A DNA stretch of 64,000 nucleotides from the NCBI GenBank assembly GCA_963843465.1, contig CAWJKP010000001.1:2355933-2419932 (forward strand). Direction: 5' to 3'. The DNA comes from Pirellulales bacterium. GTDB lineage: Bacteria; Planctomycetota; Planctomycetia; Pirellulales; Thermoguttaceae. Shown here in pieces: positions 3,551 to 63,054 of this stretch (its first letter is position 1; every line of letters starts with the position of its first letter). A model generated the notes under the pieces. It was not told where the DNA came from. It worked only from the letters and a program-made list of their open reading frames with translations, and searched no databases. The translations under genes and the position numbers were made by a program.

Positions 3551-3652
3551 GTAACCGTTCACGGGCCGGGGACTGGCTCATTTTTCGGCCCCTTTCGGCG
3601 TCTACGCGACACGCATCTGAGGCCGAAAAATGTGCCTGTCCCCTTGGCCGAA
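3551..3652. repeat. REP/MITE-like palindromic element, family A (GTAACCGTTCACGG...GGCTCATTTTTCGGCC...GGCCGAAAAATG...)
   Basis: About 100 bp with an internal hairpin (TCATTTTTCGGCC / GGCCGAAAAATGA). A near-identical copy lies at 10968-11070. Degenerate copies lie at 50366-50476 and 57293-57372. It shares the terminal GTAACCGTTCACGG with the IS66 element ends at 23381/24950. Confidence 0.6.
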
Positions 3653-5020: not shown

Positions 5021-5252
5021 GGCTTGCTCCCAAAATCGTGGTCCAACCCGCTTGGTGGTCCCACCCGAAATAGTGCTCTCCGTCTCTCGCCCCTGAATCA
5101 TTCTATCCCTTCAGGTCCAGGCCGTGCGGCCAAAATCTTTCCTCGCTCGACAACCGCGGGACGATAGCAAAGTGCGGAAATCCCGGCTAGAATGGAGGGC
5201 GAATCCGCGTAGGGGCGGAACCAGCCGAGAGAACCGTTTTTTCGAGCAGCCT

Positions 5253-9727: not shown

Positions 9728-10938
9728 AGCTCAATCCGCAGGCCATCGGTTATCTCTACAATTTCAGCGACGGGTGCCTGTGCGGACATTTGCTCGTGTC
9801 CGTGCTGGCCGGCCGCGCCGCGGCCATCGACACCTTTGCCGTCCCCGGCGGCGACCCCAAGAACCCCCAGGCCAAGCTCCTTTGGGCCCAGGACTCGCCC
9901 ACGACCAATTTTCAGCCGAACATGTTGCCCAGGCAGTTGCCGCGGCGCCTGCAGATGCAGCGGCAGGCTAGGCCGCTGGCGACCTCGCTCCCCGCGCCGA
10001 TCCTGGCCACCGGGGAGTACGTCTGCTTCGAACAGGACCGCAGACTGTTGGCGGTCGAGCCGCTTACCGGGCAGACGCTCTGGGCGCGCGAGGGCTTGGA
10101 CGCCGGCGCGGACCTCTTCGGCGACGAGGAGATGGTCTTTGCCACTTCGCCCGACTCCAACGAGGCCGAGGTGATTTCCGGCCTGGACGGCCGCGAGCTG
10201 GGCCGCCGCCAGGTGCCGGCGCTTGCCAATCGCGTGATGACTCGCGGCCGGCGCGTGCTCACCTGGGAAACCAATGCCCATCAAGCCGAGTTGACCTTGC
10301 TGGACCCCTGGACTGAGCAAGCGGTGTGGCAGCAGAAATTCTCCTCCGATGCCCATTTCTGGCCCGTCAGCCGCAATGAGTTGGCGGTTCTCGATCCGAA
10401 AGGCAAATTCGCGGTGGTTGACCTGGCCGGCGGCGAAATCGTGCTCAAGGCGCAGGTCGATCCGGTCGATCCACTGGAGGGCATCGTGGTGCTCCGCACG
10501 GCCGGCCGTTACGTGCTCTTGACGAACCGGCCCAACCCGCCGCAGGCCAACCCCTTCGGCAACTTCATGCAGCCGGGCAACGTGGCCGTGGGCGGCTGGG
10601 CGCACGGGTTCGACGCCAAGGGCACGAAACTCTGGTCCGCCGAGATTCCGCACCAGGTCCTGAACGTCTTCCAGCCCTCGGACCTGCCGGTGTTGTTCCT
10701 CTTCCGCCAGTACATGAAGGCGGTCCCGATGCCCAACGGCGGGTTCCAGGGTGGACAAATGGAGGGCCAGGTGTTCTGCCTGGACACGCGCGACGGCAAG
10801 GTCCTGCACGAGGACGCCGCGCAGGACAACAATCTGTACGAGTTGGAGGTCGATCCCGGGCGTCGCATCGAGTTCAGCTCGCACGCGCAGTCGGTGACGC
10901 TGACGTTCCCTGCAGAAAGGAGCAGCGCGCCCCATTAG
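9709..10938 (+). CDS. PQQ-like beta-propeller domain protein (possible downstream partner or continuation of the preceding giant gene)
   Basis: 409-aa ORF with repeated ...TGQTLWARE..., ...EQAVWQQKF..., ...DGKVLHE... blade-like motifs. The frame is open upstream of the ATG, and the start overlaps the previous stop by 19 nt. Confidence 0.5.
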   Translation: MPIADLKLNPQAIGYLYNFSDGCLCGHLLVSVLAGRAAAIDTFAVPGGDPKNPQAKLLWAQDSPTTNFQPNMLPRQLPRRLQMQRQARPLATSLPAPILATGEYVCFEQDRRLLAVEPLTGQTLWAREGLDAGADLFGDEEMVFATSPDSNEAEVISGLDGRELGRRQVPALANRVMTRGRRVLTWETNAHQAELTLLDPWTEQAVWQQKFSSDAHFWPVSRNELAVLDPKGKFAVVDLAGGEIVLKAQVDPVDPLEGIVVLRTAGRYVLLTNRPNPPQANPFGNFMQPGNVAVGGWAHGFDAKGTKLWSAEIPHQVLNVFQPSDLPVLFLFRQYMKAVPMPNGGFQGGQMEGQVFCLDTRDGKVLHEDAAQDNNLYELEVDPGRRIEFSSHAQSVTLTFPAERSSAPH

Positions 10939-10967: not shown

Positions 10968-11070
10968 GTAACCGTTCACGGGCCGGGGACTGGCTCATTT
11001 TTCGGCCCCTTTCGCCGTCTACGCGACACGCGTCTGAGGCCGAAAAATGTGCCTGTCCCCTTGGCCGAAG
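10968..11070. repeat. REP/MITE-like palindromic element, family A (second full copy)
   Basis: About 95% identical to 3551-3652. It sits immediately upstream of the M23 peptidase gene. Confidence 0.6.
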
Positions 11071-11090: not shown

Positions 11091-11935
11091 ATGAACGGTC
11101 GCAGTTTGGCGGAGGTCTTGGCGATCGTCTGCCTCGCCTGCCCGGGTAATTGTGCTCGGGGAGACGAAGAGCAGGCGATTCCTCGAGACACGAACTTGGA
11201 GATCGTCGAGCAACGGGCAGGCGATCACGTGGTGCTCTTCGCGCGTCTGAAGGACTGCTCCGAGGCGACGATCACGCTCTCGATGAAATTGGAGAACATG
11301 GCAGCCTCTCAACCGCTGCTGCTTACCGTGGACGCCGCAGGCAGACCATGGTTTGAGCTGGTGACCCTGCGGCCGATCGATCCCCGTTTGTACCGGCGCT
11401 ACAGCTTTCGTTACGACTGGAGACCTGGCGGACGGAGCGAGATCAAACCTCGTTCGACGGTTTATTCCCTCCCTTACGTCGGCGGAAAGTATGAGGTGAT
11501 CCAGGGCTACCTGGGAGCGTTGACCCATTATCGCGGCTCGCAGAACGAATATGCGATCGACTGGGCGATGCCTGTCGGCACGAAGGTCTGTGCAGCGTGC
11601 GAGGGCACGGTGGTGGCCCTTCGCCAGGATTCGGGCGTGGGGGGCGCCGAGGAGAAATTCGCGCCTGCGACAACTATCTGATTGTCAAGCACGCGGATGG
11701 GACCTTCGCCGAATACCGGCATCTGAAAAAGGCGGGCGTGCTCGTGAAACTGGGCCAAAACGTGAAACGGCGTCAGCCCTTGGCGCTCTCGGGCAACACC
11801 GGCTATACGACCACGCCGCACCTGCACTTCGCTGTCTTCTACAACATCAATGGCAAGACGCGGAAAACCATCCCCACCCGATTCAAGACCAACGCCGGCG
11901 TCGTTGAGAGGCTGCAGCAGGGCCGCGTCTATTGA
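11091..11935 (+). CDS. M23 (LytM-type) metallopeptidase lipoprotein; apparent frameshift near 11660 at a G6 run
   Basis: Signal/lipobox MNGRSLAEVLAIVCLAC, then YAIDWAMPVGTKVCAACEGTVVA in one frame. The next frame reads DNYLIVKHADGTFAEYRHLKK...GNTGYTTTPHLHF (the HxxxD ... HxH M23 zinc motifs). Confidence 0.7.
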
Positions 11936-23380: not shown

Positions 23381-24950
23381 CGTACTCGTCACGCTCCGCG
23401 GTAACCGTTCACGGCCCGGAGGCCGTTCTTTCGTAAATTGATCTGGACACAGGAGGGGTTTTCGGGGACGACATACGTCATGCCGTCCAACGAAGCAAGG
23501 CCACTGACGATTCCACCAGAACTCGATGCCGAGATGACCCCGGCAGTCCGTGCCTTTGTCGGGTTGCTGCTGGACCGGATTGCGAAACTGGAAGCCCGGG
23601 TGGAAGAACTCGAACGTGGCCGGAAAACGCCGCAGAACTCCTCGTTGCCGCCCAGCACAGTGCATCCCCATGCCAAACCCGTCTCGACGAAACGCAAGTC
23701 GAAGAAGAAACGCGGCGGGCAGCCGGGGCACAAGAAACATGAGCGGCCGTTGATCCCCGCCGAGGAGTGCGACGAGGTGAAGCCTCTGAAGCCGACCGAA
23801 TGCCGACGCTGCGGCGAAAAGCTCTCCGGCAGCGATCCCGAGCCGCTGCGGCACCAGGTGTGGGAATTGCCGGAGATCAAGGCCCACGTGACCGAGTACC
23901 AGCGGCATCGGCTGGCGTGTCCCTCGTGCGGAGAAACAACCTGTGCGGAACTGCCTCGCGGCGTGCCTCTGGGGCAGACAGGACCGCGATTGATGGCCTT
24001 CACCGCGCTGTTGATGGCCTACTATCGCCAAAGCAAGCGGCGCACGGCCGAGTTCCTCACGACGCTCTTGGGCCAGCCCTGCTGTCCGGCGCTGACTGTG
24101 AAGATCGAGAACCAGGTGACGGCGGCCGTGCGGCCGTCGTATGAGGCGCTGGCGGCTCAACTGCCCGCCCAAGAGCAGTTGAACATCGACGAAACGGGGA
24201 CCAAGCAGGAAAACGACAAGGCGTGGCTGTGGACCTTCGTCGCCGGCATGTTCACCGTGTTTGCCGTGCGTGCCACGCGCGAGGCCACGGCATTGACCAC
24301 CTTCCTGGGTGCGTCGTTCCACGGCATCGTCACCTGCGATCGGGCCAAAATGTACTGGCACCTGGGCCGTTTGCAATGGTGCTGGGCCCACCTGAAACGC
24401 GATTTCCAAGCGATGATCGACAGCGGCGACCCTCGGGCGAAGCACCTGGGCTTCCGCTTGCGGCACGCAGCGTGCGAATTGTTCGAGCACTGGGCCGACT
24501 ACCGCCAGGGCAGAATTTCGAGGGCGGCCTTGCTGCGTCGGATGGCCCCCGTCCGCCGCAACGTGGAGCGTTTGCTGCTGCGTGGCACCCAATGCGGTCA
24601 CGCCGACACGCGCGGCACGTGCCGGGAATTGTACGAACATCGCTCCTGGCTGTGGATGTTCCTGCGTCACGAAGGGCTGGAACCGACAAACAATGCGGGC
24701 GAGCGGTCGTTGCGTCATGCGGTGATTTGGCGAAAGCTTTCCTTCGGGACCCAAAGCGCCAACGGCAGCCGCTTCGTCGAGACGATGCTGACGGTAGTAG
24801 AAACCTGCCGCCAGCAGCGCCGCAACGCCTTCGCTTTCCTGGCTCACGCCGTCGAAGCTCATCTTGCCCACCAACCTGCCCCTTCATTGCTCCCCGGGGC
24901 GTGAACGGTTACCGCTCCGCGTGACGCACGGCCTCACGCGGAGCGTGAGG
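23381..24950 (+). mobile_element. IS66-family insertion sequence (single-ORF type) with imperfect terminal inverted repeats
   Basis: Left end CGTACTCGTCACGCTCCGCGGTAACCGTTCACGGCC. The reverse complement of the right end is CGTACTCCTCACGCTCCGCG[extra palindrome]GGTAACCGTTCACGCC. It encloses the TnpC-type transposase gene. Confidence 0.75.
23480..24904 (+). CDS. IS66-family transposase (TnpC-like)
   Basis: N-terminal leucine zipper (IAKLEARVEELER). Zinc-ribbon CRRCG...CPSCG. Conserved IS66 blocks: NIDETGTK, WLWTF, CWAHLKRDF, EPTNNAGERSLRHAVIWRK. Confidence 0.85.
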   Translation: MPSNEARPLTIPPELDAEMTPAVRAFVGLLLDRIAKLEARVEELERGRKTPQNSSLPPSTVHPHAKPVSTKRKSKKKRGGQPGHKKHERPLIPAEECDEVKPLKPTECRRCGEKLSGSDPEPLRHQVWELPEIKAHVTEYQRHRLACPSCGETTCAELPRGVPLGQTGPRLMAFTALLMAYYRQSKRRTAEFLTTLLGQPCCPALTVKIENQVTAAVRPSYEALAAQLPAQEQLNIDETGTKQENDKAWLWTFVAGMFTVFAVRATREATALTTFLGASFHGIVTCDRAKMYWHLGRLQWCWAHLKRDFQAMIDSGDPRAKHLGFRLRHAACELFEHWADYRQGRISRAALLRRMAPVRRNVERLLLRGTQCGHADTRGTCRELYEHRSWLWMFLRHEGLEPTNNAGERSLRHAVIWRKLSFGTQSANGSRFVETMLTVVETCRQQRRNAFAFLAHAVEAHLAHQPAPSLLPGA

Positions 24951-25087
24951 AGTACGCAGGCAAAACCTGCCCCCCTGGTTTGACGAGGGGGCCGCGATCT
25001 GCTACCTTCCTTAGTAGGGAAAGGTGCCTCTCCCCTTTTCCCCACGCGGTCACAGTCCACGGTCTCTTCGCAAAAGGTGCTCCTGCA

Positions 25088-40331: not shown

Positions 40332-40483
40332 GTTATGCTTCATCATAACTCAACAAGCTTCTGTTATGCTGAAGCATAACCCGCGGACTGCTATTTCTGT
40401 AGGGAACGCCCTCCGTGACGTTCCGGGAAGCACGATAGACGCCGATCCTCCTCCCGGAACGCCACGGAGGGCGTTCCCTACAG
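40328..40483. repeat. Two TTATGCTnnAGCATAA palindromes followed by a palindromic repeat of family F (CTGTAGGGAACGCCCTCCGTG...CACGGAGGGCGTTCCCTACAG)
   Basis: Family F also occurs in-frame inside the giant gene at 56662-56749. Confidence 0.5.
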
Positions 40484-40520
40484 ACGAAAACGGTTCAAGT
40501 CATCCCCGAGGAGAACTGCG

Positions 40521-44140: not shown

Positions 44141-47100
44141 TCATTTCGACCTCCGCTCGCTCTCCTTACTTGTGCGCCAAACTCGGGCGACACGGAAGCC
44201 CAGGTCGTAGTTGCTGTCCCCGGGCACGTTGCCGCCGCGGCACGCCGCACGGCAGTCCCACGCCGGGTGGCCCCAGCCCGCGCCGCGGTCCGCGCGGTCG
44301 TCCTTGTCCGTCACAACAGCAACGTCTCCATCATCCTCGACGACCCCGCCTCCCGCAGGCAACCGGTATTTCACAAACTCATCGTGGCACCATTGACACA
44401 CATTCCCCTCCATGTCAAACAGCCCAAAGTCATTCGGCTTCAAGCTCCCCACCGGCCAGCTCCGCCCCTTCGAGTTCTCCTGATACCACGCGTACTTCGG
44501 TAGCAGCTCCCGAGTTTCCCCGTAGTAACGACTGGTTGCCGCGCCGGCCCGATAAACGTACTCCCACTCCGCCTCCGTCGGCAGCCGATAACCGGTTCGT
44601 TCCAGGAAATCGGCTGCCGGCTTCATCTCTTCGGCATACCGCCCCGACGCATTCGGCTCATAGCACCACTGCTCCTGAGGCACTCCCTCCTCCTTGCTCA
44701 GCCAATTGCAGTACGCCGCCGCCTCATACCACGTCATTGCGACCATCGGTCGCTCGGACGTTGACGCGTATTTCTGTCGCGCGAGATCCGACAAACGTGA
44801 GATCCCGGAAGTTGCCTGCAAGAACGCATCGTACTGCTCGACCGTCACCGTCTTGTTCGCCACCGCAAACGAGCGACCGATTCGCCGGCGGTGCTGGCTC
44901 TCTCTCTCGAGCCGGTCCAACTCGGCATTCGGCGAGCCCATCAGGAACCCGACCGGGCCGCGGATGATGACCATCGTATGGCCTTGAGGCGTCACATACC
45001 AGCTCGACTCTCCTTGCGCTTTGCGCCGGCAAGCTGCCGATCGATCTCCCGCAGTTGCTTCTGCTGGCCCCATTGCCGCAGCAGCCACTCGGCCGCCCCG
45101 TGAATGCCGGCATCCGGGTCCGCGCGGTACATGCCCAACAGCTTGGCAGTCAGGCCCTGGCGCTCCACGGCGGGCAGGGCCTCCTCGTCAAACTCGCCCA
45201 AGGCCAGCAGCAAGGCCCGCCGAACGGAGACCTCCTTCTCCGCGTCCAAATGTCCGATGACGACTTTCGGATCGACGCCCCGCGGCGCCATCCAGTGGAC
45301 CAGGTAGCTCCGCGCCCTGGGGTCGGGACTGTGCCGCAGCAGCGGCCAGACCTTCTCCGGCCGGTCCATCCGCAGCAAGGCCGCCGCGGCGTTGGCCTTC
45401 CACTTGCCCAACTTCTCCTTCATTTCGTCCGGAAGCTCCTTGGGAACCTCCTTCGCCAACTCCACCTCCAGCAGAGCAACCGCACGCGGCCCGTGCCATT
45501 TCAGCTTCGGCATCAGCGTGGCAAACTGCTTGGCGTCCGCCGCGCGGATCAACTCGGCAAGAACCACCGGCTCCCCAGCCGCATAATCGGCCAAAATGCC
45601 GGTGGCCACCGTTCGTTCCGACTCCGAGCGCTTTGTATCCTGGAAAACCTCCTCAAGCGACGGCAGGAGCGTCTTGGCGACGGGCGCAGCGCCTCCATCC
45701 AGGCGGCAACGTACAAGGGATTTTCAGTCACCAGCACCTCCGCCGTCGGCTTGGCCGCTTTGGCCCAACCATCTCCCTCGGGATCAAATCCGGCCAGGGC
45801 GCAGGCGGCGCGGAATCGGCGATCCTTTCCCGCCTGCGGGTCGTCCACGATCGACCACATGCCCTTGGCCAACCTCTCGCGGTGCGGAAGCAGGGCCGTG
45901 CGGATGATGGGCAGCTCCGCCGGCTCGGCGTCCAGCAGGCGATCGCGCAGGTAATCGACCTGTTTAGGATCGCCAGGCAGCATGGCCAGGCTGAGACGCA
46001 AGTGTTCCTTCTGCGTGAGGCCCGGCTTCTGCAACAATTCCTTCACACGGGGGCCAATTTCTGATTGGACGGATGCGAGACTTTCCAGCAAAAAAGGCAC
46101 CTGCGCGATTTCCGCCCGGCGAAGGGAGTCCACTTGAGCCAAGGTTCGTTCTCTCTGTGTCCTGACAACCCGCACGTAGGCCACCGATGAAACCACGGCA
46201 ACCACGAGCAAGAGCAAAGCAGCGGTGGTGGACAACCCCGCCATCACCGGATTCCGGCGACACCAGCGGTAGAGCCGCTCGACAGGGCTCACCCGTCGGG
46301 CCGTGATCGGCTCGCCGGCCAGCCATCGCCGCAGGTCCTCGGCCATCGCCTGGCAACCGGCGTAGCGGTGATCCCGCTTCTTCGACATGGCCTTCAGGCA
46401 AATCGTCTCCAGGTCTTTGGGGACTGCCGCATTCTCGACCCGTGGCGAGGGTGGCTCCTGGTGGATGACCAGCGAAATGACCATCGCCGGCGGACCTGAG
46501 AATGGCGTCGAGCCGCAGAGCAACTCGTAGAGCACCACGCCCAGGCTGTACTGGTCCGAGGCGGGGCCGACCTCCTCCAGCCGCCCGGCCGCCTGCTCCG
46601 GCGGCATGTAGGAGGGCGTGCCCAGCACCGTGCCGTCGTGCGTCAGCTTGCTCTCCGCCGTCTCCAGCCGGGCCAGGCCGAAATCCATCAACAGCGGATT
46701 GCCCTTGCGGTCCAACATGATGTTGGCCGGCTTTACGTCGCGGTGAACGACGCCCAACTCGTGGGCGTAGTCCAGCGCCCCGGCCAGGTCCATCACCAGC
46801 TTGGCCGCCTGGCGGAAGTCGGGCCGCTGCTGGTCGATGGCGTCTTCCAGCGTCTGGCCCTCGATGAAGGCCGAGGCGATGTAATACGTGTCGCCGTCGC
46901 GGCCCGCCTCGTAGACCGGCACGATGTTCGGATGGCGGAGTTAAGCCGCCGCCTTGGCCTCGGTCAGCACCCGGGCCCGGCGGGTCTCCGATTGGAGCGT
47001 CGAGGCGTGGGGCACCTTCAGGGCGATCTCGCGGTCCAGCAGCGGGTCGCGGGCGCGGTAGACCTGGCCAAAGGCCCCGGCGCCCAGCCGCTTCTGGACC

Positions 47101-47351
47101 TCGAACCGCCCGATCTTCTCCGGCACCCCCGCCTCCCGGGCGACGGAATCCTTCTTGGCCGGCGCCACGGCGGAAGGCGGGCGGAGCGGCGGGGGCGGGT
47201 CGGCAAGCGTACGGCGGACCGGCGGCGGGGCCGGCTTGCCCGTATCCGACGGGGCGGCCGGCGCGGCCGTCTCCTTGCTGACAGCACCCAGGATGAACGA
47301 ACGCTGGCACTTCTGGCAAAGGACCGTATGGCCGAGCCGCTCCTCAGGCAC
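44141..47351 (-). pseudogene. Ser/Thr protein kinase with N-terminal zinc ribbon and C-terminal FGE-sulfatase (SUMF1) domain; disrupted by an in-frame TAA stop and two frameshifts
   Basis: N-terminal ORF: CQKCQ zinc ribbon and kinase subdomains I-II (GAGAFGQVYRA...ALKV). TAA at 46923-46925 lies between ...TEAKAAA and LRHPNIVPVYEAG. Middle ORF: HRDVKPANIML, DFGLA, GTPSYMPPE. It shifts frame near 45700 and again near 45000 into the FGE domain (GNVCQWCHDEF, RGG.W). Confidence 0.7.
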
Positions 47352-47427
47352 CGTGTAGTGCTGCCCACAACCCGGATTCGGACATTAAACCTTCACGACC
47401 ATGGCCCGATTCTCCTGATCGTCGTTA

Positions 47428-47527: not shown

Positions 47528-47614
47528 CTATTCGGGCATTTTCGCACCGCGGGGCTTCCGAATACCTCGAAGCCGGAATGGCCTTCCGTTAGGGGCTCAT
47601 TATACGACGCCATT

Positions 47615-47667
47615 GTGGTGCAGGCGTCCCGCCTGCCGGAAAAAAGCAGGCGGGACGCCTGCACCAC
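47615..47667. repeat. Palindromic repeat family H (GTGGTGCAGGCGTCCCGCCTGC...GCAGGCGGGACGCCTGCACCAC)
   Basis: Second copy in-frame inside the giant gene at 58408-58476. Confidence 0.5.
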
Positions 47668-47703
47668 AAGCGGCAATGAGCCGGGTTATCGAATGCGCGG
47701 CTG

Positions 47704-50365: not shown

Positions 50366-50476
50366 AGCGTTCACGGCCACGTCGGGCGGCCACGTTGGGG
50401 ACTGGTCCATTTTTCGGCGAGAAAGCGCTTTTTGCCGTTGGACGTAAGGCCGAAAACATGGACCTGTCCCCTACGG
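50366..50476. repeat. REP/MITE family A, degenerate copy
   Basis: GTTCACGGCC...GGGACTGGTCCATTTTTCGGCG...GGCCGAAAACATGGACCTGTCCCCTACGG. Confidence 0.5.
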
Positions 50477-54800: not shown

Positions 54801-55125
54801 GGTGCTGATCTACGTTCCGGCGACCCGGCACCCCGCCGCGCTGCTGCTGGCGGCGATCGTGCTGGGCTCGTTGGCGGTGCTCTATCCGGAGCCGACGCTT
54901 TTGGCGGCGCAGGCGGCCAGTCTCGGGCTGGCGGCTGCCTTCCTGGCGGCGCTCTTGCAGCGGATCATGCTGCGGCGGCGGCTGGGGTTGCGCGACTCGG
55001 CAAGCTCGCTGCTGGATAAGGGGTCGACCCAGACGCTCTACCCGTCACCCTCAGGCAGCCGTCCCGGCTCGACGGAGAGCAAACCGGCCGTGGCATCTCT
55101 GCCGGCTGCGGGGCACCCATCATGA
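51823..55125 (+). CDS. Giant exported protein, paralog 1 of 3 (1100 aa; N-terminal signal, C-terminal triple-TM anchor)
   Basis: Signal MQGCKPQLFLGTVWLLLGWCSWLSA. C-terminal hydrophobic segments TWIVLFASGLVLIGGLVLIYV / ALLLAAIVLGSLAVLY / AAQAASLGLAAAFLAALL. It shares motifs with the two downstream genes (LSVPRATSSELKLTVP here vs SIPRLATSRLELSIP in paralog 3). Its stop overlaps the next start (ATGA). Confidence 0.6.
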   Translation: MQGCKPQLFLGTVWLLLGWCSWLSAEELPAARREPSKTAPAVEPIQESPLTIHLKDKDGRLIPMLDWSFEDFIRVYQENRGFKQRDETPAYSLQSMSITGAAKGDYAELSIEFGVLVRDGQWTRVPLRLNQAILREGVKYAGPGQQFVGFEAAGDGYVSWIHGASAERHRLTMNVMVPLASVGEETRLKLSVPRATSSELKLTVPLAKAFGQVAEGSTLASKPANGGAATEFDVLGLGGDFEISWRKSASAAAEGQPVLEAVGAISARVDSRLVNTEAVLTVRAFGGLLDHFRVRLPQGSELVAGNPMGYTVVPSAAKGAAADAREVEVRFPRKVSGPVEVRLATRQTYEAAPAGGWFELAGFEVVEAGRQWGHFAISVVGDLHVVWGPDKGVRQVDELPEPLRRENLLAGFEYFTQPFSLTARVVSRKTRLSVEPEYVFLVEPDQVRLKAKLKYTVRGAKTSALDVILPDWTLDEVGPDNLVAVDAVATGPKGTVSIPLTTPSIGPLEIDLRAHKRLEPGAKSVSFAMPQPQNGSVSPAAVVVLPADNVELSTDSKATIGLIRQQNAPPMSLPERQQAPWFYRAESPKAVFAAAVTTHSQSVGVDVASEVQIVGQKALVEEKISYAVAYQPLDKVSLQVPRSLLGSDKIEISIDGQPLSLSEPADAADKPGEPGPVLRRLLLPSPRIGTCELVVRYPIALEKLLPEAGISASVPLVMPLDGKLTSNRALVTANAGVRVQLLEGPWTVVDPSVPELEHRQGQQLAATQRSDRVVLGIHLEDRDALGATIVERAWIQTVFLDGGRQDRAVLRFTSDQRELSLAVPAGIDPGKVEVWLDRQRVEGTPAGGKLTIELPEGFSQGSHWLEASYRFPAGPAGRGWLSLELPHLGRDVWVRRLYWQLVLPRNEHVIASPAGMLPEFTWGWNGSFFGRNPSFEQPMLEVWSGGQHRTPVPFATSRYVYSSLQPVERCELRTANRTWIVLFASGLVLIGGLVLIYVPATRHPAALLLAAIVLGSLAVLYPEPTLLAAQAASLGLAAAFLAALLQRIMLRRRLGLRDSASSLLDKGSTQTLYPSPSGSRPGSTESKPAVASLPAAGHPS

Positions 55126-58100
55126 GCGGGCCTCTTCCGGGCTGGCCGATCCTATTCGTCGCCGCTTTGGCGGGCCTGGCATGGGAGACCGGGGCATGGG
55201 GGGCCGAGGGGGCGCCGCCGGCGGTCAAGGAGGCCCCGCCGCTGGTTTATCGCCGCATGTTCGCCCCCGCCGATCGGATGGAGCTGTGGCCTCGCGGCGG
55301 CGCCCGCCTGGTGCCCATGCAGGCGGCGGAGTTTGAACGTCTGACGTCGATCGCGCGGATGGCGGCCAGCGGGAGTGATGCGTCGATTGCAGCGGCGGTC
55401 GCCTCCGCCGGCTATCGTGCCAAGCTTTCCGGGGACGTGCTGACCGAGGGCGAGGCATCGTTGGAGATCGTCCACACGGCGCAGGGCGCCGTCATGCTGC
55501 CGCTGGACCCTTGCGGTCTGGCGGTGAGCAAGGCCGCCTGGTCGGTCGACGAAAGCAAGCCGGCGCAATTGGGATTGGGCGCCGACGGCAAGTTGCGGGT
55601 GCTGGTGGAGCGGTCGGGAATGCTCAAATTGGCCTGGTCGCTCCGCGGCCGGCGCGACGCCGCCGGGGCCGAGGACTTCTCCTTGGAGCTTCCTCCGGCC
55701 CCCAGCAGCCACTTGATTCTCGATCTGCCTGAGAAGACCGTTCCCTTAGTGGACCACGGGATCGTGGTCAAGGATGCGAACGAGGAGAAGGGGGCGGTCC
55801 GCTGGCGGATCGAGCTGGGCGGGAATCATCGCCTTCGGCTGCGGATATTGCCCGGCGAGGACTTGGCGACCGCCGGCCCCTTGACCCGCGTCCGCCAATC
55901 GCTGGACTACAAGTTCAGCCTGCACGGCCTGGATCTCGACGCCCGCTTCCAGCTCGACGTTCACAACGAGCCGCTACGGCAGATCGCCGTGTCGATGGAC
56001 CGCGGCTTGCAACTCGTCTCGGCCCGCTGCGGCAACGCCCCGGTGGCCTGGTCGGTCATGGCGCCGACGCCCGACAGCAGGTCTCTGCGGGTGGTGCTGG
56101 AGTTTCCCGAGCCTATCCAGGGGACGGGACGGGTGTTGAGCCTGGGGACCGTGGCGCCGCTGCGGACCGACGCCCGCTGGAAGTTGCCTTCGATCCGGCC
56201 GGAGGGTCTGTTCTGGCAGGAAGGTGCGGCCACTCTTGCGGTGGCGCGGCCGTTGCTGCTGGAGCAACTTCTTGTGCATCGCGGGCGGCAGTTCCGCTTG
56301 GAGTCGCTTTTGCCGCCGAACCAGGGCGAAAGAACGGAGATCCAACTCTTCTCCCCCGAGGCGGAGTTGGAAGTCCTGCTGGCCCGTGCGCAATCGCCGC
56401 TGTTGGTGGACAGTGCCACGTCGATCGAGCTGACCGGCGGGCAGATGACCGGCCGCGTGGGGGCCAACTTCCACCTGGCCGACGGCGAGCGATACCAGTT
56501 GCAGGCCGATATCGGCCGCGGCTGGATCATCGACTCCGTGGACTCGCTGCCGGCGGAGGCGATCGGCGACTGGGACGTGGAGGAAGCGGAGGCGTTAGCC
56601 CCGGCGGCCACGCCGGCCGTGTCGTTAGCCACCGGGAAGAGACAGCTTGAGCAAATCTCCTCTGTAGGGAACGCCCTCCGTGGCGTTCCGCAGCCGGCGG
56701 AAAAGGGTATCCTCCCTTCGCGGAACGCCACGGAGGGCGTTCCCTACAGGCGGAAGCTGGTGGTCCGATGGACGCAGGCCCTCTCGCCCGCCCGACCGGC
56801 GCAGTTGCTCGTCAGCGGCCGGCGACTGCACTCCCCCTTGGGCGAGTCCCTGTCGATCGACGATCTGGTGCCGCTGGTGTTCCGCGCGTCGGCCGGCGCC
56901 CACCGGCTGGTGGCCGTCTCGGCGGTGGAGCCTTACCAGGTCAAGGTGAGCGGGGCGGAACAGGTTTCGCTGCTTAGTCCGGCAAGCCTTGATTCGTCGG
57001 TCGCGAAGCTCTTTGCCCGGCCGCCTCGGGGAGTCGTCTTCGAGAATACGCCGGCGGCGGCCGGTCTGAAGTTCTCCCTGGAGAACCAGCGACCGCAGTA
57101 CGCAGCGGCGATCCACGTCGAGGCCACGGTCTCGGACCGATCGCTTGCCGAATCCTACCGGCTGGTTTGCACGCCGGAGTCGGCGCGGGTCCAGCGGCTG
57201 GTGGTCGAGTTCTCGCCGCATCGCCAGGGGCCTCTTCGTTGGACGCTTGTGGGCGACGGCGAGGATCCGCCCACCGCCAGGCCGCTTCCGTCGGGGATTG
57301 GTCCATTTTTCGGCGGGAAAGGCCGTTTGGCGCATTCACCCGGGGCCGAAAACAGGGACCTGTCCCCTTTGGCGGCAGCGGCCCAGCCGGGCGAGGATCG
57401 CCAACGATGGGAGATCCTCCTGCGAAAACCCAAGAGCACGCCCTTCGAGATCCGCGCGGTTCGCACCAGTGCGCTGGAATTGCTGCCGGCCTCGCCCCAA
57501 CCGGTCAGCCTGGCCTCGCTCCCCGAAGCCACGCGCCAACAGGCGACGCTGACCGTGGCCGCCATTGGCTCCCGCGCCGTGCGGATCGCAGCGCGGCTGC
57601 TGGAGCCGCTGCCGATCGAGGTTCCCGACGCCGGCCGGTATACGACGGTCCGGGCGGCCTATCGCTACGATCCGTCGCACAACGTCCCTTCGGCCCCGCA
57701 GGCGGTGCTCTACCTGTTGCCCGCCGCGGCCGGAAGCGACGGTCCTGCGGCCTGGGCTTGGAGCTGCCGCCTGCAATCGCGACTGGACGACGAGGGAACG
57801 GGCCGCCACCTGGTGACCTACCGCTTGGAGAACAGCGGACGAAGGCGGTTGACCGTCGCGCTTCCCGGCGGAGTGTCGCTGGGGCAAGTGCGGGGAATCT
57901 GGGTGGATGGGGTTCGCGCGGCGTGGCAAAGCAGCGGCAGGAGTGCTCCTCACGCTCCGCGTGAGGGTATGCGTCACGCGGAGCGTGACGAGTGCAACCG
58001 ACTGGAGGTGGAGCTTCCCGCGGGCGAGCGGTACCCGGTCGTCAGGCTCCAGTACACGACGCACGGCCCGCCGCTGGGACTGGTGAGCCGGCTCGATCCG

Positions 58101-59873
58101 CCCTTGCCGACGCTTGAGGTTCCCGTGCTGGCCCGGCAATGGACGGTTTGGATTCCGCCCGGCTACCTGCCCGGCGACCCCGATCCGCGATGGCAAACGC
58201 CGCGGGACGAGCCGCCGAGCTGGTCGCAGCGGTTGCTCGGTCCGCTGGGTCAGCCGGCCGGCCATCGGCCCTTCGATCCGGCGCGGATGAGCGATTGGAC
58301 GGGGTTGGTCGACTCGCGGTATCCGGCCCTTGCCGCGGCGAAAGCTACCGAGCTCGTCGAGCGGATCGGCCGCTATGCGGCCCTTTGCACCAGTTCGGGA
58401 AAAGCTCGTGGTGCAGGCGTCCCGCCTGCCCAAAGAGCCGTACCGCCTGCCCAAGCAGCCGGGACGGCTGCACCACAAGAACGCGCCGGCGATTGGGGTT
58501 CGTTTTTGAGCGACCCGGCCGTCCTGGGCCTCTTCTCCACCAGCGTCAATGCGGTCCGTGGCCCGACCCTGCTGGTCGACGGTGAGGCCCTGGACCGGCT
58601 GGGACTGACACCCCGCACGCCGATCGGCGCAACGGACACCCGGGGTGTGGCAAAGATCGACGGTGTGGGGATCCTCGACCAGGCGGGCTTGGCATTCCTG
58701 GTCCACGACGACGCCCTGGTGCTCACCGCCGCCGACGAAGTGGCGCTGGACCGCGGCCAACTCGTGCCGCTCCGGGACGGCGTCGGTTGGCAAGTCCTGC
58801 CCGGGCCGCTCTGGGAGCTGATTCACCTCGCGGCCACCGCCGAGAAGGAGCCGGACGGCTCGCTGCCGATTCCCGCCGCCGCCTGGACGCAGTTGCACCG
58901 CCAGGCGGAGATGCCCTGGTCCGCATCGCGGCTGGCCGGCTACCAATCCGGCGATACGCTCGGATGGCGGGCCTGCCGTCTGGAGCTTTCCGATCGCCAG
59001 CCGGTCCATTTGACGGTGGTCCGCCGCAGCGCGATGGAGGCCCTCCGCTGGGCGATTTTCCTGGCGGTTGTCGCCGCCGTGTCTTGGTGGGGCGTCGATC
59101 GCACCGCGGTGATTATTGCCCTGGCCGGACTCTTGGCGGCGGCAGCCCTGCTGCTGCCGGGAACCCTGGCGACCATCGTCTCCGGCGCTCTTCTGGGAAC
59201 TCTCTTGGGCCTGGCTTTTCCCTGGGTGCGGCAAAGGCCCGTGGTGGCGGCGGCCGGCGGGCCCGGACCGAGCGGAAAATCCCCGTCCTCCGTATCGACT
59301 CTTACCCACGCGGCCACCCAGCTTGGGTGGCTGATCGTGCTGAGCGGCGGCGCCCTGGGACTGCCCGCGCTGGCCCGCGCCGCGGATCCGGCATTGCCCA
59401 ATAAGGGAGGAAACGCAGTAGGATGGGTCTCCAGACCCGTCCCGGACGGCTCTGGAGAGCCATCCTACATGATTCAGCTTGCTGCCGGGGAGGCAACTAC
59501 CCCGGCGGCGGCGACCCCTGCGGCCGCAGCAGCCCCCGCCGGCGGGCAGCCGGCAGCCGCCGTGCAGCAGGCGGCCCCGTCGGAGAGCAGGGCGCCCGCC
59601 GCCGTGCCGCCGTTGCACAATGTCTTCATTCCGATCGACAAGCAAGACCGGCCGACGGGGGACAAGTATTATCTGTCGGAGGATCTCTACAACGAGCTGC
59701 ACCGCCGCGCCGCGGCCGTGACCGACGAGCCGCAAGGCTGGCTGCTCGGCTCGGCCACCTATCACGCCGTGCTCGCCTGGCAGGCGGCGCCCGACCGGCT
59801 GGTGCTCAACGAGCTGCGGGCGTCGTTCGAGCTGGTGGTCTTCGGCGCCGGGCGCGGGTCCGCATTCCCTTGA
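55122..59873 (+). CDS. Giant exported protein, paralog 2 of 3 (1583 aa) containing four in-frame palindromic repeat insertions
   Basis: Signal-like MSGPLPGWPILFVAALAGLAW. C-terminal TM segments LRWAIFLAVVAAVSWWGV / AVIIALAGLLAAAALLLPGTLATIVSGALLGTLLGLAF. Intact 4.75-kb ORF in 68% GC. Repeat families F, A, IS66-TIR-like and H lie at 56662-56749, 57293-57372, 57948-57993 and 58408-58476 without breaking the frame. Confidence 0.6.
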   Translation: MSGPLPGWPILFVAALAGLAWETGAWGAEGAPPAVKEAPPLVYRRMFAPADRMELWPRGGARLVPMQAAEFERLTSIARMAASGSDASIAAAVASAGYRAKLSGDVLTEGEASLEIVHTAQGAVMLPLDPCGLAVSKAAWSVDESKPAQLGLGADGKLRVLVERSGMLKLAWSLRGRRDAAGAEDFSLELPPAPSSHLILDLPEKTVPLVDHGIVVKDANEEKGAVRWRIELGGNHRLRLRILPGEDLATAGPLTRVRQSLDYKFSLHGLDLDARFQLDVHNEPLRQIAVSMDRGLQLVSARCGNAPVAWSVMAPTPDSRSLRVVLEFPEPIQGTGRVLSLGTVAPLRTDARWKLPSIRPEGLFWQEGAATLAVARPLLLEQLLVHRGRQFRLESLLPPNQGERTEIQLFSPEAELEVLLARAQSPLLVDSATSIELTGGQMTGRVGANFHLADGERYQLQADIGRGWIIDSVDSLPAEAIGDWDVEEAEALAPAATPAVSLATGKRQLEQISSVGNALRGVPQPAEKGILPSRNATEGVPYRRKLVVRWTQALSPARPAQLLVSGRRLHSPLGESLSIDDLVPLVFRASAGAHRLVAVSAVEPYQVKVSGAEQVSLLSPASLDSSVAKLFARPPRGVVFENTPAAAGLKFSLENQRPQYAAAIHVEATVSDRSLAESYRLVCTPESARVQRLVVEFSPHRQGPLRWTLVGDGEDPPTARPLPSGIGPFFGGKGRLAHSPGAENRDLSPLAAAAQPGEDRQRWEILLRKPKSTPFEIRAVRTSALELLPASPQPVSLASLPEATRQQATLTVAAIGSRAVRIAARLLEPLPIEVPDAGRYTTVRAAYRYDPSHNVPSAPQAVLYLLPAAAGSDGPAAWAWSCRLQSRLDDEGTGRHLVTYRLENSGRRRLTVALPGGVSLGQVRGIWVDGVRAAWQSSGRSAPHAPREGMRHAERDECNRLEVELPAGERYPVVRLQYTTHGPPLGLVSRLDPPLPTLEVPVLARQWTVWIPPGYLPGDPDPRWQTPRDEPPSWSQRLLGPLGQPAGHRPFDPARMSDWTGLVDSRYPALAAAKATELVERIGRYAALCTSSGKARGAGVPPAQRAVPPAQAAGTAAPQERAGDWGSFLSDPAVLGLFSTSVNAVRGPTLLVDGEALDRLGLTPRTPIGATDTRGVAKIDGVGILDQAGLAFLVHDDALVLTAADEVALDRGQLVPLRDGVGWQVLPGPLWELIHLAATAEKEPDGSLPIPAAAWTQLHRQAEMPWSASRLAGYQSGDTLGWRACRLELSDRQPVHLTVVRRSAMEALRWAIFLAVVAAVSWWGVDRTAVIIALAGLLAAAALLLPGTLATIVSGALLGTLLGLAFPWVRQRPVVAAAGGPGPSGKSPSSVSTLTHAATQLGWLIVLSGGALGLPALARAADPALPNKGGNAVGWVSRPVPDGSGEPSYMIQLAAGEATTPAAATPAAAAAPAGGQPAAAVQQAAPSESRAPAAVPPLHNVFIPIDKQDRPTGDKYYLSEDLYNELHRRAAAVTDEPQGWLLGSATYHAVLAWQAAPDRLVLNELRASFELVVFGAGRGSAFP
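56662..56749. repeat. Family F palindrome inserted in-frame in giant gene 2
   Basis: CTGTAGGGAACGCCCTCCGTGGCGTTCCG...CGGAACGCCACGGAGGGCGTTCCCTACAG translated as ...SSVGNALRGVPQPAEKGILPSRNATEGVPYRR... Confidence 0.55.
57293..57372. repeat. Family A REP-like element inserted in-frame in giant gene 2
   Basis: GGGATTGGTCCATTTTTCGGCGGGAAAGGCCGTTTGGCGCATTCACCCGGGGCCGAAAACAGGGACCTGTCCCCTTTGG translated as ...GIGPFFGGKGRLAHSPGAENRDLSPLA... Confidence 0.55.
57948..57993. repeat. IS66-TIR-derived palindrome (CCTCACGCTCCGCGTGAGG...CGTCACGCGGAGCGTGACGAG) in-frame in giant gene 2
   Basis: Matches the CTCGTCACGCTCCGCG / CCTCACGCGGAGCGTGAGG sequences at the IS66 ends (23390, 24913-24953). Confidence 0.5.
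58408..58476. repeat. Family H palindrome in-frame in giant gene 2
   Basis: GTGGTGCAGGCGTCCCGCCTGCCCAAAGAGCCGTACCGCCTGCCCAAGCAGCCGGGACGGCTGCACCAC. Confidence 0.5.
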
Positions 59874-62800
59874 AACGCGAGGGAGCCAGCCTGCTGCCGG
59901 ACGGGGCCACGTTGGACGGCCGGGTGGTCCAGCCCGAGTGGCAACAAGACGGCAATGTGCTGAGCCTCGAAGTGGCCGAGGCGGGCCGGTACCACCTGGA
60001 GCTCTCCCTTTTGCCGGCGATGCGCTCCGGTGCGGCGCAAGGCGGCTTCGATCTGAGCATTCCGCGGCTGGCCACGTCGCGGCTGGAGCTTTCGATCCCG
60101 CCGGACGCCCCGCTGATCGAGGTGCCCTCGGCCCTCGGCCGCACGGTTTACGAGGGCGACCCGGCGCGGGTGGTCGCCGAATTGGGAGCCACGGATCGGC
60201 TGAGCGTTCGTTGGCCGGACGGCGCCTCGCGGGGCTCCGTCGAGCCTGCCGTCGATTTGGAACAGTATCTTTGGCTCAAGGTGCAACCCGGCTCGGTGCG
60301 GCTCGACACGCGGTTGAAGCTGCACCTGGTGGAGGGCCGCATCCGCGAGTTCCTGGCGGCGGCGGATCCGCGGTTGCGGTTGCTGCCCTTGGCGGCCGAT
60401 TCGCCGGTGGCCCAGGTTTCGCCGGTGGCCCAGGCGTCGAGCACGCCCGGAGCGCCCAGATCCTCCGCTTCGAGCTCGCCCGGCCCGCCTCCGACCAGGT
60501 GACCGTCGACGCCTCGTTTCTCTTGACCGGCACGTCCGGCGTGGGGAATCTCGGGCTGCCGCGGCTGGAGGTGCTCAACGTGCGTACCACGAAGCGCTGG
60601 ATGGCGGTCTCCGTCGATCCTTCGCTGGAGCACGAGATCCAGGCCTCCAACCGGCTGGAGGCACTCACCGGCCAAACCTTCACCGCCGCCTGGGGCGCGG
60701 CGGGCGCCCCGCCGCCGGCGGCGGGCCCCGCGCCGCTGGCCGCCTACAGCCTGGCTTCCGGCGAGCCGGCGTGGAGCCTGGCCACGCGACCCCGCGAGCC
60801 GCGGACGCTCGTCGACCAGGTCCTCTCGCTGGACTTCGATCTCGACCGGGCCGAGGTCCAGTACCAAGCCCGCCTTGTCACCCAGGCGGGCGACAGCTTT
60901 TGCTACCAGATTCTCGCCCCCGCCGAACTTGAAGTGGAGCAGGTTTCGCTCCTGGCCGACGCGGTTGAGCGGGTGGCCCGCTGGAGCCGGGGACCCCAAG
61001 GGACCTTGAACGTCTTCCTCAACGGCCCTGCCAGCGGCCAACAGAGTCTCACCATCCGTGGGCACTTGCCCCTGGCCAGTCCGCAGAACGTGCCGCTGCC
61101 GGTGATTCACATCGAGGGCGCCGAGTTGCACAGCAGCCTGATCCGGCTTCTGCGCCGGCCGGCCGTGGAAGTGAAAGTCAGCCAGACCGCCGGTCTGAAG
61201 GCCGTCGAAGCACCGGCCCCCGACGACAAGTCCGCTGCCGGCCGCCCGGTGGCTTCGTTCCAGGTAAGCCAGCCGAGCTACCGGGCCACGCTCTCCGTCC
61301 GGCCGAATCACCCCGAGCTGCGAGCCCGCCAAACTACCGTCTTGCGTTTCGACGGCGAGCAGCGGGAAGCGAGGGTCGAGTTCCAGATGGACGTCGAGCA
61401 TGGGCTGGTCGATGAGCTCTCGCTGCGGGTGCCGCCGGAGTGGAGCGGCCCTTACGAAGTCGATCCACCGGCGGCGATTAAGGTCCAGGAGGCCGGCGTG
61501 ACCCAGCGGCGGTTGATCGTGCAACTGCCCGCGTCGATCACGGGCCGCTACCACCTGGTGCTGACGGGCCCGCTGACGGTGCCCTCGGGTCAGCGGGTGC
61601 GGGTGCCCGAGATCCTCCTGGAAAACGCCAGGCTGGATCGCCACGTGCTCATCCTGCCGACCCAGGCCCAATTGCACCCGGTCGCCTGGGACGTGCAAGG
61701 TCTGAAGGAGATCCCTCTGCCCGGGGATTTCTCCGCGCCGCCGGTGGCCCGCGAATCGTTCGTCGCCTACCAGGTGGACGGCCCGTCGTTTCACGGCGTT
61801 CTCCGGCCGCTGTCGGGCGTCGCCCAGATCCAGCTTGCCGACGTGAGCCTGGCCTGGCGGGCGGACGGCGGCTACGCGGGCGTCGCGCTGTTGGACGTCG
61901 AGACGGCCGGCCGCAAGGAAGGCACGCTGCGGATGCCGGAAGGCTCGCGGTTGGTGGCGGTCCGCGTGGCGGGAATCCCGGTGAGCCCGGAGGCAGCCGG
62001 CCGCCATCGCTGGAAACTGACGTTTTTTCCCAGCGACCTGCCCGAGCGCGTCGAGGTGGTCTTCGACGGCGTGTTGGCCGGCGCGGACGTACCGGGGGCT
62101 CGGCGGTTCGAGTCGCCGACGTTGGAGGGTCACCCTGTCCGCCAGACCCTCTGGACCATTTCCGGCCCGCCCTCGCTGTGGCCGGGAAAGGCCGTAGGGC
62201 TGAAGTCGCTCGACCGCCGGGAGCAGGATCTGGTCCGTCTGCGAAGCCTGACGGCGATGCTCAAGGGGGCCGAGGATTTCAGCGGCGAAGAGCGGAGCCA
62301 GACCAACGCCTGGCGCGCCCGGTGGTCTGGCCGCTGGCGAGCCGCCCGGGACGCCGTCGGCCGCTGGCTGGTCCTTCGCAGCGGCGAGGAAACGAGTGTC
62401 GGTTCTGATGGAGGACGGATTGGCAATTCGTCCTACGAACCACGAATTGGCAATCCGTCCTACGAACCACGGATTGGCAATCCGTCCAGCAGTAGGGCCG
62501 ACAGCCGCGAGAGCCTCAAGCAAGAGCTATCGGTCCTCGAGGGGTCGGTCGCCTGGGTAGCCGAGAGCGAGGACACGGGGACACGGGGACGCGGGGACAC
62601 GGGGAACTGGGGACGCGGAGACGCGGGGACTGCTAGGACATCCGCGGCCGACAATCCTCCGGCGCTGTGGCAGAACTGCCTGGACCGGCCCGACAATGCG
62701 ACCCGTTGCCTTGCCGCGGACGGCGCCGCGTCCGTGGTGTTGGACTACCGGGCCCGCGCGTCGGACTCCTGGTGGGGGCGGTTGGTGGCCGCCTGCGGCC

Positions 62801-63054
62801 TGGGGCTGCTGGTCGTGGCTTGCGTAATGGGGAGCCGCCGCGGTGTATCGCTGGCCTTTCTCAGCCGCTGGCCGCACGTGCTGGGCGTGGCCGCCGGCCT
62901 GGCCTGGTGGCTCTGGCTTTGGCCCAACGCTTTAGGCTGGCTGATGGTCCTCGCCTCTCTGGTCTGCTCGGTTCGTTCGGGTTGGAAATGGTCCAAACCG
63001 CGCGGCAAGTCGTGGCGATCCAACGGGGTAATCAGTGCGCGTCACACGCAATGA
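59870..63054 (+). CDS. Giant membrane-anchored protein, paralog 3 of 3; probable TTG start overlapping the previous stop (TTGA); apparent frameshift near 60450
   Basis: Frame-2 segment LKREGASLLPDGATLDGRVVQPEWQQDGNVLSLEVAEAGRYHLELSLLPAM...SIPRLATSRLELSIPPDAPLIEV is protein-like and paralogous to the N-terminal regions of paralogs 1 and 2. From about 60480 the frame-1 ORF continues (LEVLNVRTTKRWMAVSVDPSLEHEIQASN...) to a C-terminal triple-TM anchor (LVAACGLGLLVVACVMG / VLGVAAGLAWWLWLW / LMVLASLVCSV). The first ~170 aa of the listed 1038-aa ORF (R/G-rich) are rejected. Confidence 0.5.

Follow-up and report, generated by a model that had tools for sequence, protein, structure and literature searches.

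The 64-kb stretch of Pirellulales bacterium contig CAWJKP010000001.1 analysed here (hereafter the window) contains a giant protein-coding gene, and at least six short palindromic repeat elements belonging to five families lie in-frame within it. Probably these are mobile palindromes that were accepted in-frame by a giant gene under selection. An earlier note on this DNA had described four of them, named F, A, I and H, in an open reading frame (ORF) of 1583 codons, and had compared their behaviour with that of the in-frame Rickettsia palindromic elements (RPEs). Inverted-repeat searches and folding z-scores bear out all four placements, and the comparison stands, as several otherwise intergenic families are inserted in-frame in one gene; two more elements, E5 and E6, had gone unnoticed.

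Six palindromic elements in one gene

By their sequence F, E5 and E6 can be classed as repetitive extragenic palindromes (REPs) headed by GTAG, the tag reading GTAGGA in E5 and GTAGGACG in E6 (Table 1). The F unit, cTGTAG-GGAACGCC-CTCCGT-GGCGTTCC, has its 8-bp stem (GGAACGCC / GGCGTTCC) behind a cTGTAG head, and the dimer is laid out as 30+28+30 nt. F, H, I and E5 are all head-to-head dimers, that is, inverted REP pairs with a short spacer, and the E6 cluster was located by repeat search at 62397-62503, in the downstream part of the ancestral gene. Inverted repeats were also found in I (57946-57992, 19-nt arms, 95% complementary), H (58405-58479, 25-nt arms, 88% complementary) and E5 (59418-59468, 25-nt arms, 92% complementary), that of A (~57291-57368) being weaker than those of F, I and H. 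Predicted RNA folding energies were -80 kcal/mol for F, -44.4 for H, -42.6 for I, -41.4 for E5 and -40.9 for A, with z-scores against shuffled sequence of -11.7 (F), -6.9 (I), -6.8 (E5), -5.4 (H) and a marginal -2.5 (A). Neither Rfam nor tRNA scans gave a match anywhere in the window.

Table 1. Positions of the giant gene, its palindromic elements and the related repeats in the window; lengths at insertion sites are given for the window and for the relative lacking the element.
Feature	Position	Strand or context	Window / relative (nt)	Net gain	Details
ORF, 1583 codons, ATG start	55122-59873	+			N-terminal ~60% of a ~7.9-kb, ~2600-codon gene
Second-frame continuation of ancestral gene	59858-60424	+			87.7% amino acid identity to L002 gene 2, residues 165-350
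Third-frame continuation of ancestral gene	60442-63054	+			Up to the natural stop
Frameshift 1	59847-59852	+			GGGG run short by one G relative to L002
Frameshift 2	60452-60456	+			CCCC run short by one C relative to L002
F insertion	56593-56748	+	156 / 6	+150 nt (50 codons)	~65-nt unique left part, then F REP dimer
F palindrome	56662-56749	+			30-nt arms, 100% complementary (inverted-repeat search)
A insertion	57290-57378	+	89 / 11	+78 nt (26 codons)	GGGGA..TCCCC ends, no GTAG tag
I element	57943-57995	+			53-nt head-to-head dimer, GTGCTC-CTCACGC-TCC-GCGTGAG...
H element	58405-58479	+	107 / 23	+84 nt (28 codons)	Head-to-head dimer, GTGGT-GCAGGCG-TCC-CGCCTGC
E5	59418-59468	+			51-nt GTAGGA-tagged REP dimer in low-complexity linker after transmembrane segment
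E6	62376-62495	+	120 / 9	+111 nt (37 codons)	Third segment; clustered REP units of GTAGGACG type, period 27 nt, units on minus strand
F twin	40396-40484	intergenic			E 5e-12
I twin	24913-24952	intergenic			E 4e-11
H twin	47613-47670	intergenic			E 6e-8; 24-nt arms, 100% complementary
A twin	50397-50472	intergenic			E 1e-6
A copies, more distant	3568-3643, 10985-11060	intergenic
I twin split by IS66-family element	23382-24955				9-bp target duplication CGCTCCGCG
IS66-family insertion sequence, single ORF	23401-24912				Transposase 23405-24904, IS66 domains

In the frame of the gene F reads VGNALRGVP...NATEGVPY and E6 ...GRIGNSSYEPRIGNPSYEPRIGNPS... / ...YEPRIGNPSYEPRIGNPS..., other predicted peptides from the elements being GNALRGVPQPAEK and IGNPSYEPR. 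None of the listed elements holds a stop codon in the ORF frame, and the claim that the elements introduce neither a stop nor a frame shift is upheld by the open ORF and by a single same-frame high-scoring segment pair (HSP, 55143-59117) of a tblastn search that spans the F, A, I and H sites; E6 likewise falls within a single HSP (60442-62976). As four to six of the six frames are open in every element, the stop-free state alone is unremarkable, and the informative signals are the codon-multiple length, the continued same-frame homology and purifying selection. The left part of the F insertion (56593-56660, ~65 nt), encoding PAATPAVSLATGKRQLEQIS, is missing in the orthologues, and 1.66 Mb of related DNA contain no other copy of it.

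Comparison with relatives marks the elements, on sequence evidence, as true insertions. In a protein alignment of 15 sequences (14 orthologues and the window ORF), every aligned orthologue, including P0002 and P0003 (72-73% identical), shows clean gaps where F, A and H lie, and E5 falls in a poorly conserved linker where P0002 and P0003 end. At the DNA level, alignments with the ~85%-identical relatives L001 and L002 (80-87% identity in flanking coding sequence) are interrupted exactly at the elements, and all four measured gains (150, 78, 84 and 111 nt) are multiples of three. The orthologue alignment that had been proposed as a check thus returned clean codon-multiple indels with conserved coding flanks at F, A and H.

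The I site is occupied differently in each lineage: L001 carries a 103-nt A-like palindrome together with the right half of I, and L002 carries an A-like palindrome alone. The same codon position was therefore hit repeatedly, which makes it an insertion hotspot. The species is represented by two more assemblies, L122 (99.9% identical to the window) and L123 (98.8%), in which the elements are identical and occupy the same positions, E6 of L123 having one 27-nt unit fewer, and mis-assembly is thereby ruled out.

The giant gene, its frameshifts and selection

The product of the 1583-codon ORF is identical to the deposited protein P0001, encoded on a 2.6-Mb contig. In total, 58 homologues were found, mostly single proteins of ~2400 aa from metagenome-assembled genomes (MAGs) of Pirellulales and other Planctomycetota, only one of which has a Pfam domain listed (PF02095), and Pfam and NCBIfam scans of the giant gene and its neighbours returned no family. 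Searching the window with four homologues (tblastn) yielded matches at 55143-59846, 59858-60424 and 60442-62988, which are collinear and each in a different frame. Alignment with the closest intact relative, L002, placed a G deletion at ~59850 and a C deletion at ~60455. The ORF stops at 59873 because one G is lost from the G-run at ~59850, the resulting frameshift creating the TGA at 59871-59873, which a TTG at 59869 overlaps. What had been described as one intact 4.75-kb gene is hence the first 60% of a gene of ~7.9 kb that contains two one-nucleotide homopolymer deletions.

The first frameshift is common to L122 and L123, and the second occurs in L122 and not in L123. Many single-base indel differences separate both assemblies from the window, and L122 alone shows eight gap openings over 18.6 kb, three of them breaking the giant-gene ORF elsewhere, which indicates that consensus indel errors are common in such assemblies; the window genome and its sisters appear, also from their contig names, to be long-read metagenome assemblies with indel errors. 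The two homopolymer deletions accordingly represent either consensus errors left over from long-read assembly or mutations that arose very recently. The frameshifts have no relation to the palindromes.

Measured against L001 and L002, the ratio of nonsynonymous to synonymous substitution rates (dN/dS) is 0.33-0.35 in the first segment, 0.17 in the second and 0.34 in the third, so that all three evolved as coding sequence; this pattern points to purifying selection on the giant gene. The dN/dS of the upstream neighbour gene (0.19) lies below the 0.33 of the giant gene. The gene product is a conserved planctomycete membrane/envelope protein, membrane-anchored and built of tandem β-sandwich domains.

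Several further features of the gene were recorded. An 18-nt tandem duplication at 60401-60436 (TCGCCGGTGGCCCAGGTT / TCGCCGGTGGCCCAGGCG), not present in L002, lies ~18 nt upstream of the second frameshift. Within the gene, about six 8-nt units (GGGGACAC/GGGGACGC) are repeated in tandem and in-frame at 62560-62610; the array accounts for a net gain of 36 nt over L002 and encodes ...DTGTRGRGDTGNWGRG..., an octamer period being unusual within a coding region. Between the window and L123 there are 64 substitutions at 60457-63054 (proportion of synonymous differences, pS, 0.04) and two in the upstream 4.7 kb; nearly all lie downstream of ~60450, coinciding with the second frameshift, and the jump points to a boundary of recombination or to a consensus of mixed strains.

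In L002 the gene is split at a linker into two ORFs (1183 and 1167 aa), the second of which begins with a signal-peptide-like sequence. The splitting segment is ~190 nt long and hairpin-rich (L002 13552-13741), and no further copy of it was found in 1.66 Mb of related DNA, so that its status as a repeat element is not supported. L002 also has no equivalent of window 57110-57673 (~188 codons; L002 ~11919-11923), and the L001 contig stops 43 nt past the equivalent point.

Predicted location of the inserted peptides

An AlphaFold model of ORF residues 401-1200, computed from a 34-sequence alignment (mean predicted local distance difference test score, pLDDT, 76), shows tandem β-sandwich domains with pLDDT ~90. 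The score falls below 50 at residues 494-539 (F), 731-757 (A) and 1095-1120 (H) and dips at residues 941-944 (I). In this structure prediction, a check that the earlier note had proposed, the inserted peptides sit in predicted loops between β-strands, and the informative point in the model is that the inserts are placed between confidently predicted strands. Foldseek against the PDB retrieved only generic β-sandwich strings (ribophorin/OST1, integrin α legs) at template-modelling (TM) scores ≤ 0.3, and no function was adopted from these generic folds.

Intergenic twins and an IS66-family element

All four families named in the earlier note have intergenic twins in the window with significant E values (blastn-short within the 64 kb; Table 1), as it had claimed, though its coordinates for the A twins were 17-31 nt off. 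The remaining palindrome copies in the window are all intergenic, and further GTAG families are purely intergenic there, e.g. GTAGCAGGCACAC... and GTAGG-GTTATGCT.... The six intragenic elements of the window all lie in the giant gene, which makes up ~12% of it. This concentration suggests an unusual tolerance or a local hotspot; the large size of the gene, its many loops and its relatively relaxed dN/dS are features that may confer such tolerance.

Element I had been taken for a palindrome derived from IS66 ends, and the relationship proved to be the reverse. The intergenic I copy is interrupted by an IS66-family insertion sequence (IS), whose ends read GTAACCGTTCACG... at 23401 and ...CGTGAACGGTTAC at 24912 and which is flanked on both sides by the 9-bp direct repeat CGCTCCGCG. 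In-silico removal of the IS and one CGCTCCGCG copy restores a 53-nt palindrome identical to the in-gene I at 48 of 53 positions, demonstrating that the IS landed in the palindrome and that the palindrome is not IS-derived. The possibility that I is a MITE (a miniature transposable element with inverted repeats) of the resident IS66 was rejected, as the terminal inverted repeats of the IS are GTAACCGTTCACG... and not the palindrome, which is the split target. A MITE origin of F, A and H was likewise set aside, no target-site duplication being found at their junctions relative to the empty sites.

REPs serve as targets of insertion sequences, e.g. IS1397 and ISPpu9/10, and the IS66-family element in the I palindrome is an example of a palindromic repeat as an IS target. 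The case resembles those in that the IS sits inside the palindrome with its duplication drawn from the hairpin, and differs in that the IS belongs to another family and that the intergenic twin, not the gene, is concerned.

Family F across Planctomycetota

An exact search with a 22-nt F core over GTDB genomes and metagenome contigs matched at least 119 stretches of the former and at least 120 of the latter (at least 239 in total), the GTDB matches listed being almost all MAGs of Pirellulales, Gemmataceae, Planctomycetaceae or Thermoguttaceae. Across 159 F copies, conservation of the TGTAG head exceeds 90% and does not extend to the flanks; most copies elsewhere are inverted pairs. A 26-nt F core (GTAG and hairpin) is identical across MAGs of Pirellulales, Gemmataceae, Planctomycetaceae and Thermoguttaceae (loci L003-L243). 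A REP family would not be expected to show such identity across orders, which suggests horizontal spread or very long persistence with a transposase.

Among 209 copies in other genomes with enough flanking sequence, 13 (6%) lie in-frame in coding-like ORFs, counted as such when at least 100 codons extend on each side. The VGNALRGVP frame is used by ten of these 13 and by the window copy, i.e. by 11 of 14 intragenic copies (L003, L033, L058, L070, L085, L101, L164, L175, L220, L241 and window 56662-56749). Pfam domains surround the F insert in five of six ORFs scanned, L033 having no Pfam match, and the host genes encode a GH57 glucanotransferase, a B12-radical SAM protein, a VWA protein, an AddB-type helicase-nuclease and a squalene-hopene cyclase.

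Two fetched loci, L004 and L005, carry Y1_Tnp (PF01797) genes scoring 25-29 bits (cutoff 23). In L004, from a Pirellulales MAG, the Y1_Tnp gene (369-1067) has REP dimers on both sides (181-1140), arranged head-to-head as GTAGAC-ATCACGC-TCC-GCGTGAT, with a hairpin (ATCACGC-TCC-GCGTGAT) that resembles family I; the locus is a textbook 'REPtron'. At L005 2455-2822, one F REP lies 15 nt upstream of the start of a Y1_Tnp gene (2501-3055) of the REP-associated tyrosine transposase (RAYT) type, and a second lies in-frame in that gene, just past the HUH motif (...NHVHLLLSINGDYDDGGGTPRRAFPTEGGG...). The L005 contig is labelled as a Eubacteriales MAG, perhaps through mis-binning. The position of the Y1_Tnp genes in L004 and L005 ties REPs of this kind to RAYT-like transposases within the phylum, and by analogy a RAYT may mobilise the elements in the window organism as well.

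Proposed explanation and alternatives

The preferred explanation runs as follows. The genome would carry short GC-rich palindromic repeats of many families. Several families would be classical REPs, in which a hairpin follows the GTAG head and which mostly occur as head-to-head pairs, as in REPINs (REP doublets forming hairpins). By analogy with other bacteria, RAYT-type Y1 (HUH) transposases would most likely copy the elements in trans, in the form of single-stranded hairpins. At least five of them would have entered the giant gene after the lineage had diverged from the ~85%-identical relatives, a sixth site having been hit independently in those relatives. The survivors would be those insertions that are whole-codon, stop-free and located in loops or linkers between β-strands, each encoding 17-50 extra, probably disordered, residues.

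Several observations weigh against this explanation. The ancestral gene contains two frameshifts, one of them in all three assemblies of the species, and a recent inactivation of the giant gene is possible. A strict GTAG tag is missing in A, which has none, in H (GTGG) and in I (GTAC/GTGC). A regular-expression search for a RAYT-like motif (HUH and Y...NP) found none in the 64-kb window, and the F, A and H junctions show no target-site duplication or target motif when compared with the empty sites. The low pLDDT at the inserts is partly automatic, as no aligned homologue has those residues.

One alternative is that the giant gene is a decaying pseudogene in which palindromes pile up unselected. 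This is unlikely, even though two frameshifts are found relative to all orthologues, the first is present in each of the three assemblies, the window has its six intragenic elements in this one gene and the dN/dS of the gene (0.33) exceeds the 0.19 of the upstream neighbour. Unselected insertions would be whole-codon throughout with a chance of only ~(1/3)^4 to (1/3)^6, whereas the measured ones all are, and are stop-free with same-frame homology; and dN/dS is still 0.17-0.34 in the parts downstream of the frameshifts. The interruptions themselves fit the commonness of consensus indel errors, as illustrated by the gap openings in L122, and L123 is without the second frameshift.

It is very unlikely that the palindromes are instead selected nucleic-acid elements acting on mRNA or DNA, for instance as internal attenuators, as sites of RNase processing or as binding sites of proteins. 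Hairpin stability is very high (-40 to -80 kcal/mol), the F arms match perfectly, the F core is identical across orders and the I site holds different elements in three lineages; young mobile insertions, however, equally predict hotspots and perfect arms. The elements are missing from close relatives that retain the gene, they belong to five unrelated families, the number of E6 units differs among strains and no Rfam family matches. An artefact, either over-read coding similarity or a chimeric mis-assembly, both of which the earlier note had named as possible refutations, is suggested only by the apparent long-read origin of the genome with its indel errors and is effectively refuted by the highly significant twin matches, the folding z-scores down to -11.7, the recurrence of the same elements at the same positions in three independent assemblies and the orthologues that lack exactly the F, A and H segments.

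Relation to known palindromic elements

Ogata et al. reportedly described in 2000 that Rickettsia palindromic elements lie in-frame in protein-coding genes, where they are tolerated as extra surface peptides, and RPE-1 is said to measure ~100-150 nt and to use a single reading frame. The elements of the window (51-123 nt) share with RPEs the in-frame, stop-free insertion of palindromes into conserved protein genes, as revealed by orthologue comparison, and the preference for one frame per family, here the VGNALRGVP frame of F. They differ in phylum, in lifestyle and apparently in sequence, the F, H, I and E5 consensus sequences being GC-rich and without evident resemblance to RPEs, and the two are likened by behaviour and not by sequence membership.

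Closer precedents are the GTAG and CGTC REP super-families described by Di Nocera, De Gregorio & Rocco 2013 (BMC Genomics 14:522, PMC3733652). According to the text of that paper, REPs occur in Planctomycetes and other members of the PVC (Planctomycetes-Verrucomicrobia-Chlamydiae) group, including Rhodopirellula baltica, intragenic REP dimers encode 20-30 aa, and some ORFs are hit twice, two families meeting in one ORF in the HrpA gene of Opitutus terrae (Oter_0009). The novelty implied by the earlier note is thereby lost, intragenic GTAG REPs, and even two families in one ORF, being on record there. The same text equates some RPEs (RPE-4, RPE-6) with REPs of the CGTC type, not of the GTAG type seen here.

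The window shares with the system in PMC3733652, as its text presents it, the GTAG head and hairpin, the head-to-head dimers, the several families per genome and the mostly extragenic location with a minority in-frame in genes. It differs in bearing six elements of five families in one gene, more than any of the ORFs compared from that text, in which planctomycete intragenic cases are confined to short hypothetical ORFs. Neither GGAACGCC nor the peptide GNALRG occurs in the text of the supplement to PMC3733652, where consensus sequences are given as figures. A full-text literature search found no further paper on REPs in planctomycetes.

In the REPIN-RAYT system, REPINs are essentially extragenic and lineage-specific (Bertels & Rainey 2011, PMC3116915; Nunvar et al. 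2010, PMC2817692). Common to that system and the present elements are inverted REP doublets with a variable spacer and, on contigs of other Planctomycetota, a Y1_Tnp gene that has REP dimers on both sides (L004) or adjoins F REPs (L005). In contrast, the F core is identical in several planctomycete orders, and the regular-expression search yielded no RAYT-like motif within this window.

As in-frame palindrome insertion has already been described for REPs and RPEs, the giant gene is a rich new example and not new biology. It adds an orthologue-verified case from free-living Planctomycetota to the few bacteria with selfish palindromes written into proteins, under an unusually heavy load of six elements from five families in one gene. 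For annotation it matters that the deposited protein of 1583 aa stems from a truncated reading of a ~2600-aa gene and that REP-encoded peptides inflate the 'novel' sequence of planctomycete proteins. The identical REP core across orders, the preferred frame and the thrice-hit site leave the understanding of REP elements unchanged. It is doubtful, though conceivable, that REP families shared nearly unchanged across the phylum act as recurrent in-frame peptide cassettes (VGNALRGVP...NATEGVPY) in a non-random frame, with certain large β-sandwich envelope proteins as preferred or targeted sinks, and so bring about loop diversification or gene fission; if so, REP insertion would be a real mechanism of such change rather than neutral litter.

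Other loci in the window

A Ser/Thr kinase gene (45549-47384) contains an in-frame TAA at 46941-46943 (minus strand) within the kinase domain (...EAKAAA*LRHPNIV...), where both sister assemblies have CAA (Gln); the TAA represents either a nonsense mutation specific to this strain or an error of the consensus. In a plot of 5.1-11 kb, the coding signal from GC content at third codon positions (GC3) changes frame twice on the plus strand, at ~7600-7832 and ~9600-9727, with no intergenic gap. These switches (~7.8 and ~9.7 kb) span the ORFs 5124-7832, 6326-9727 and 9340-10938, which have PQQ_2 and TPR domains, and reflect either overlapping genes or frameshifts in a large gene.

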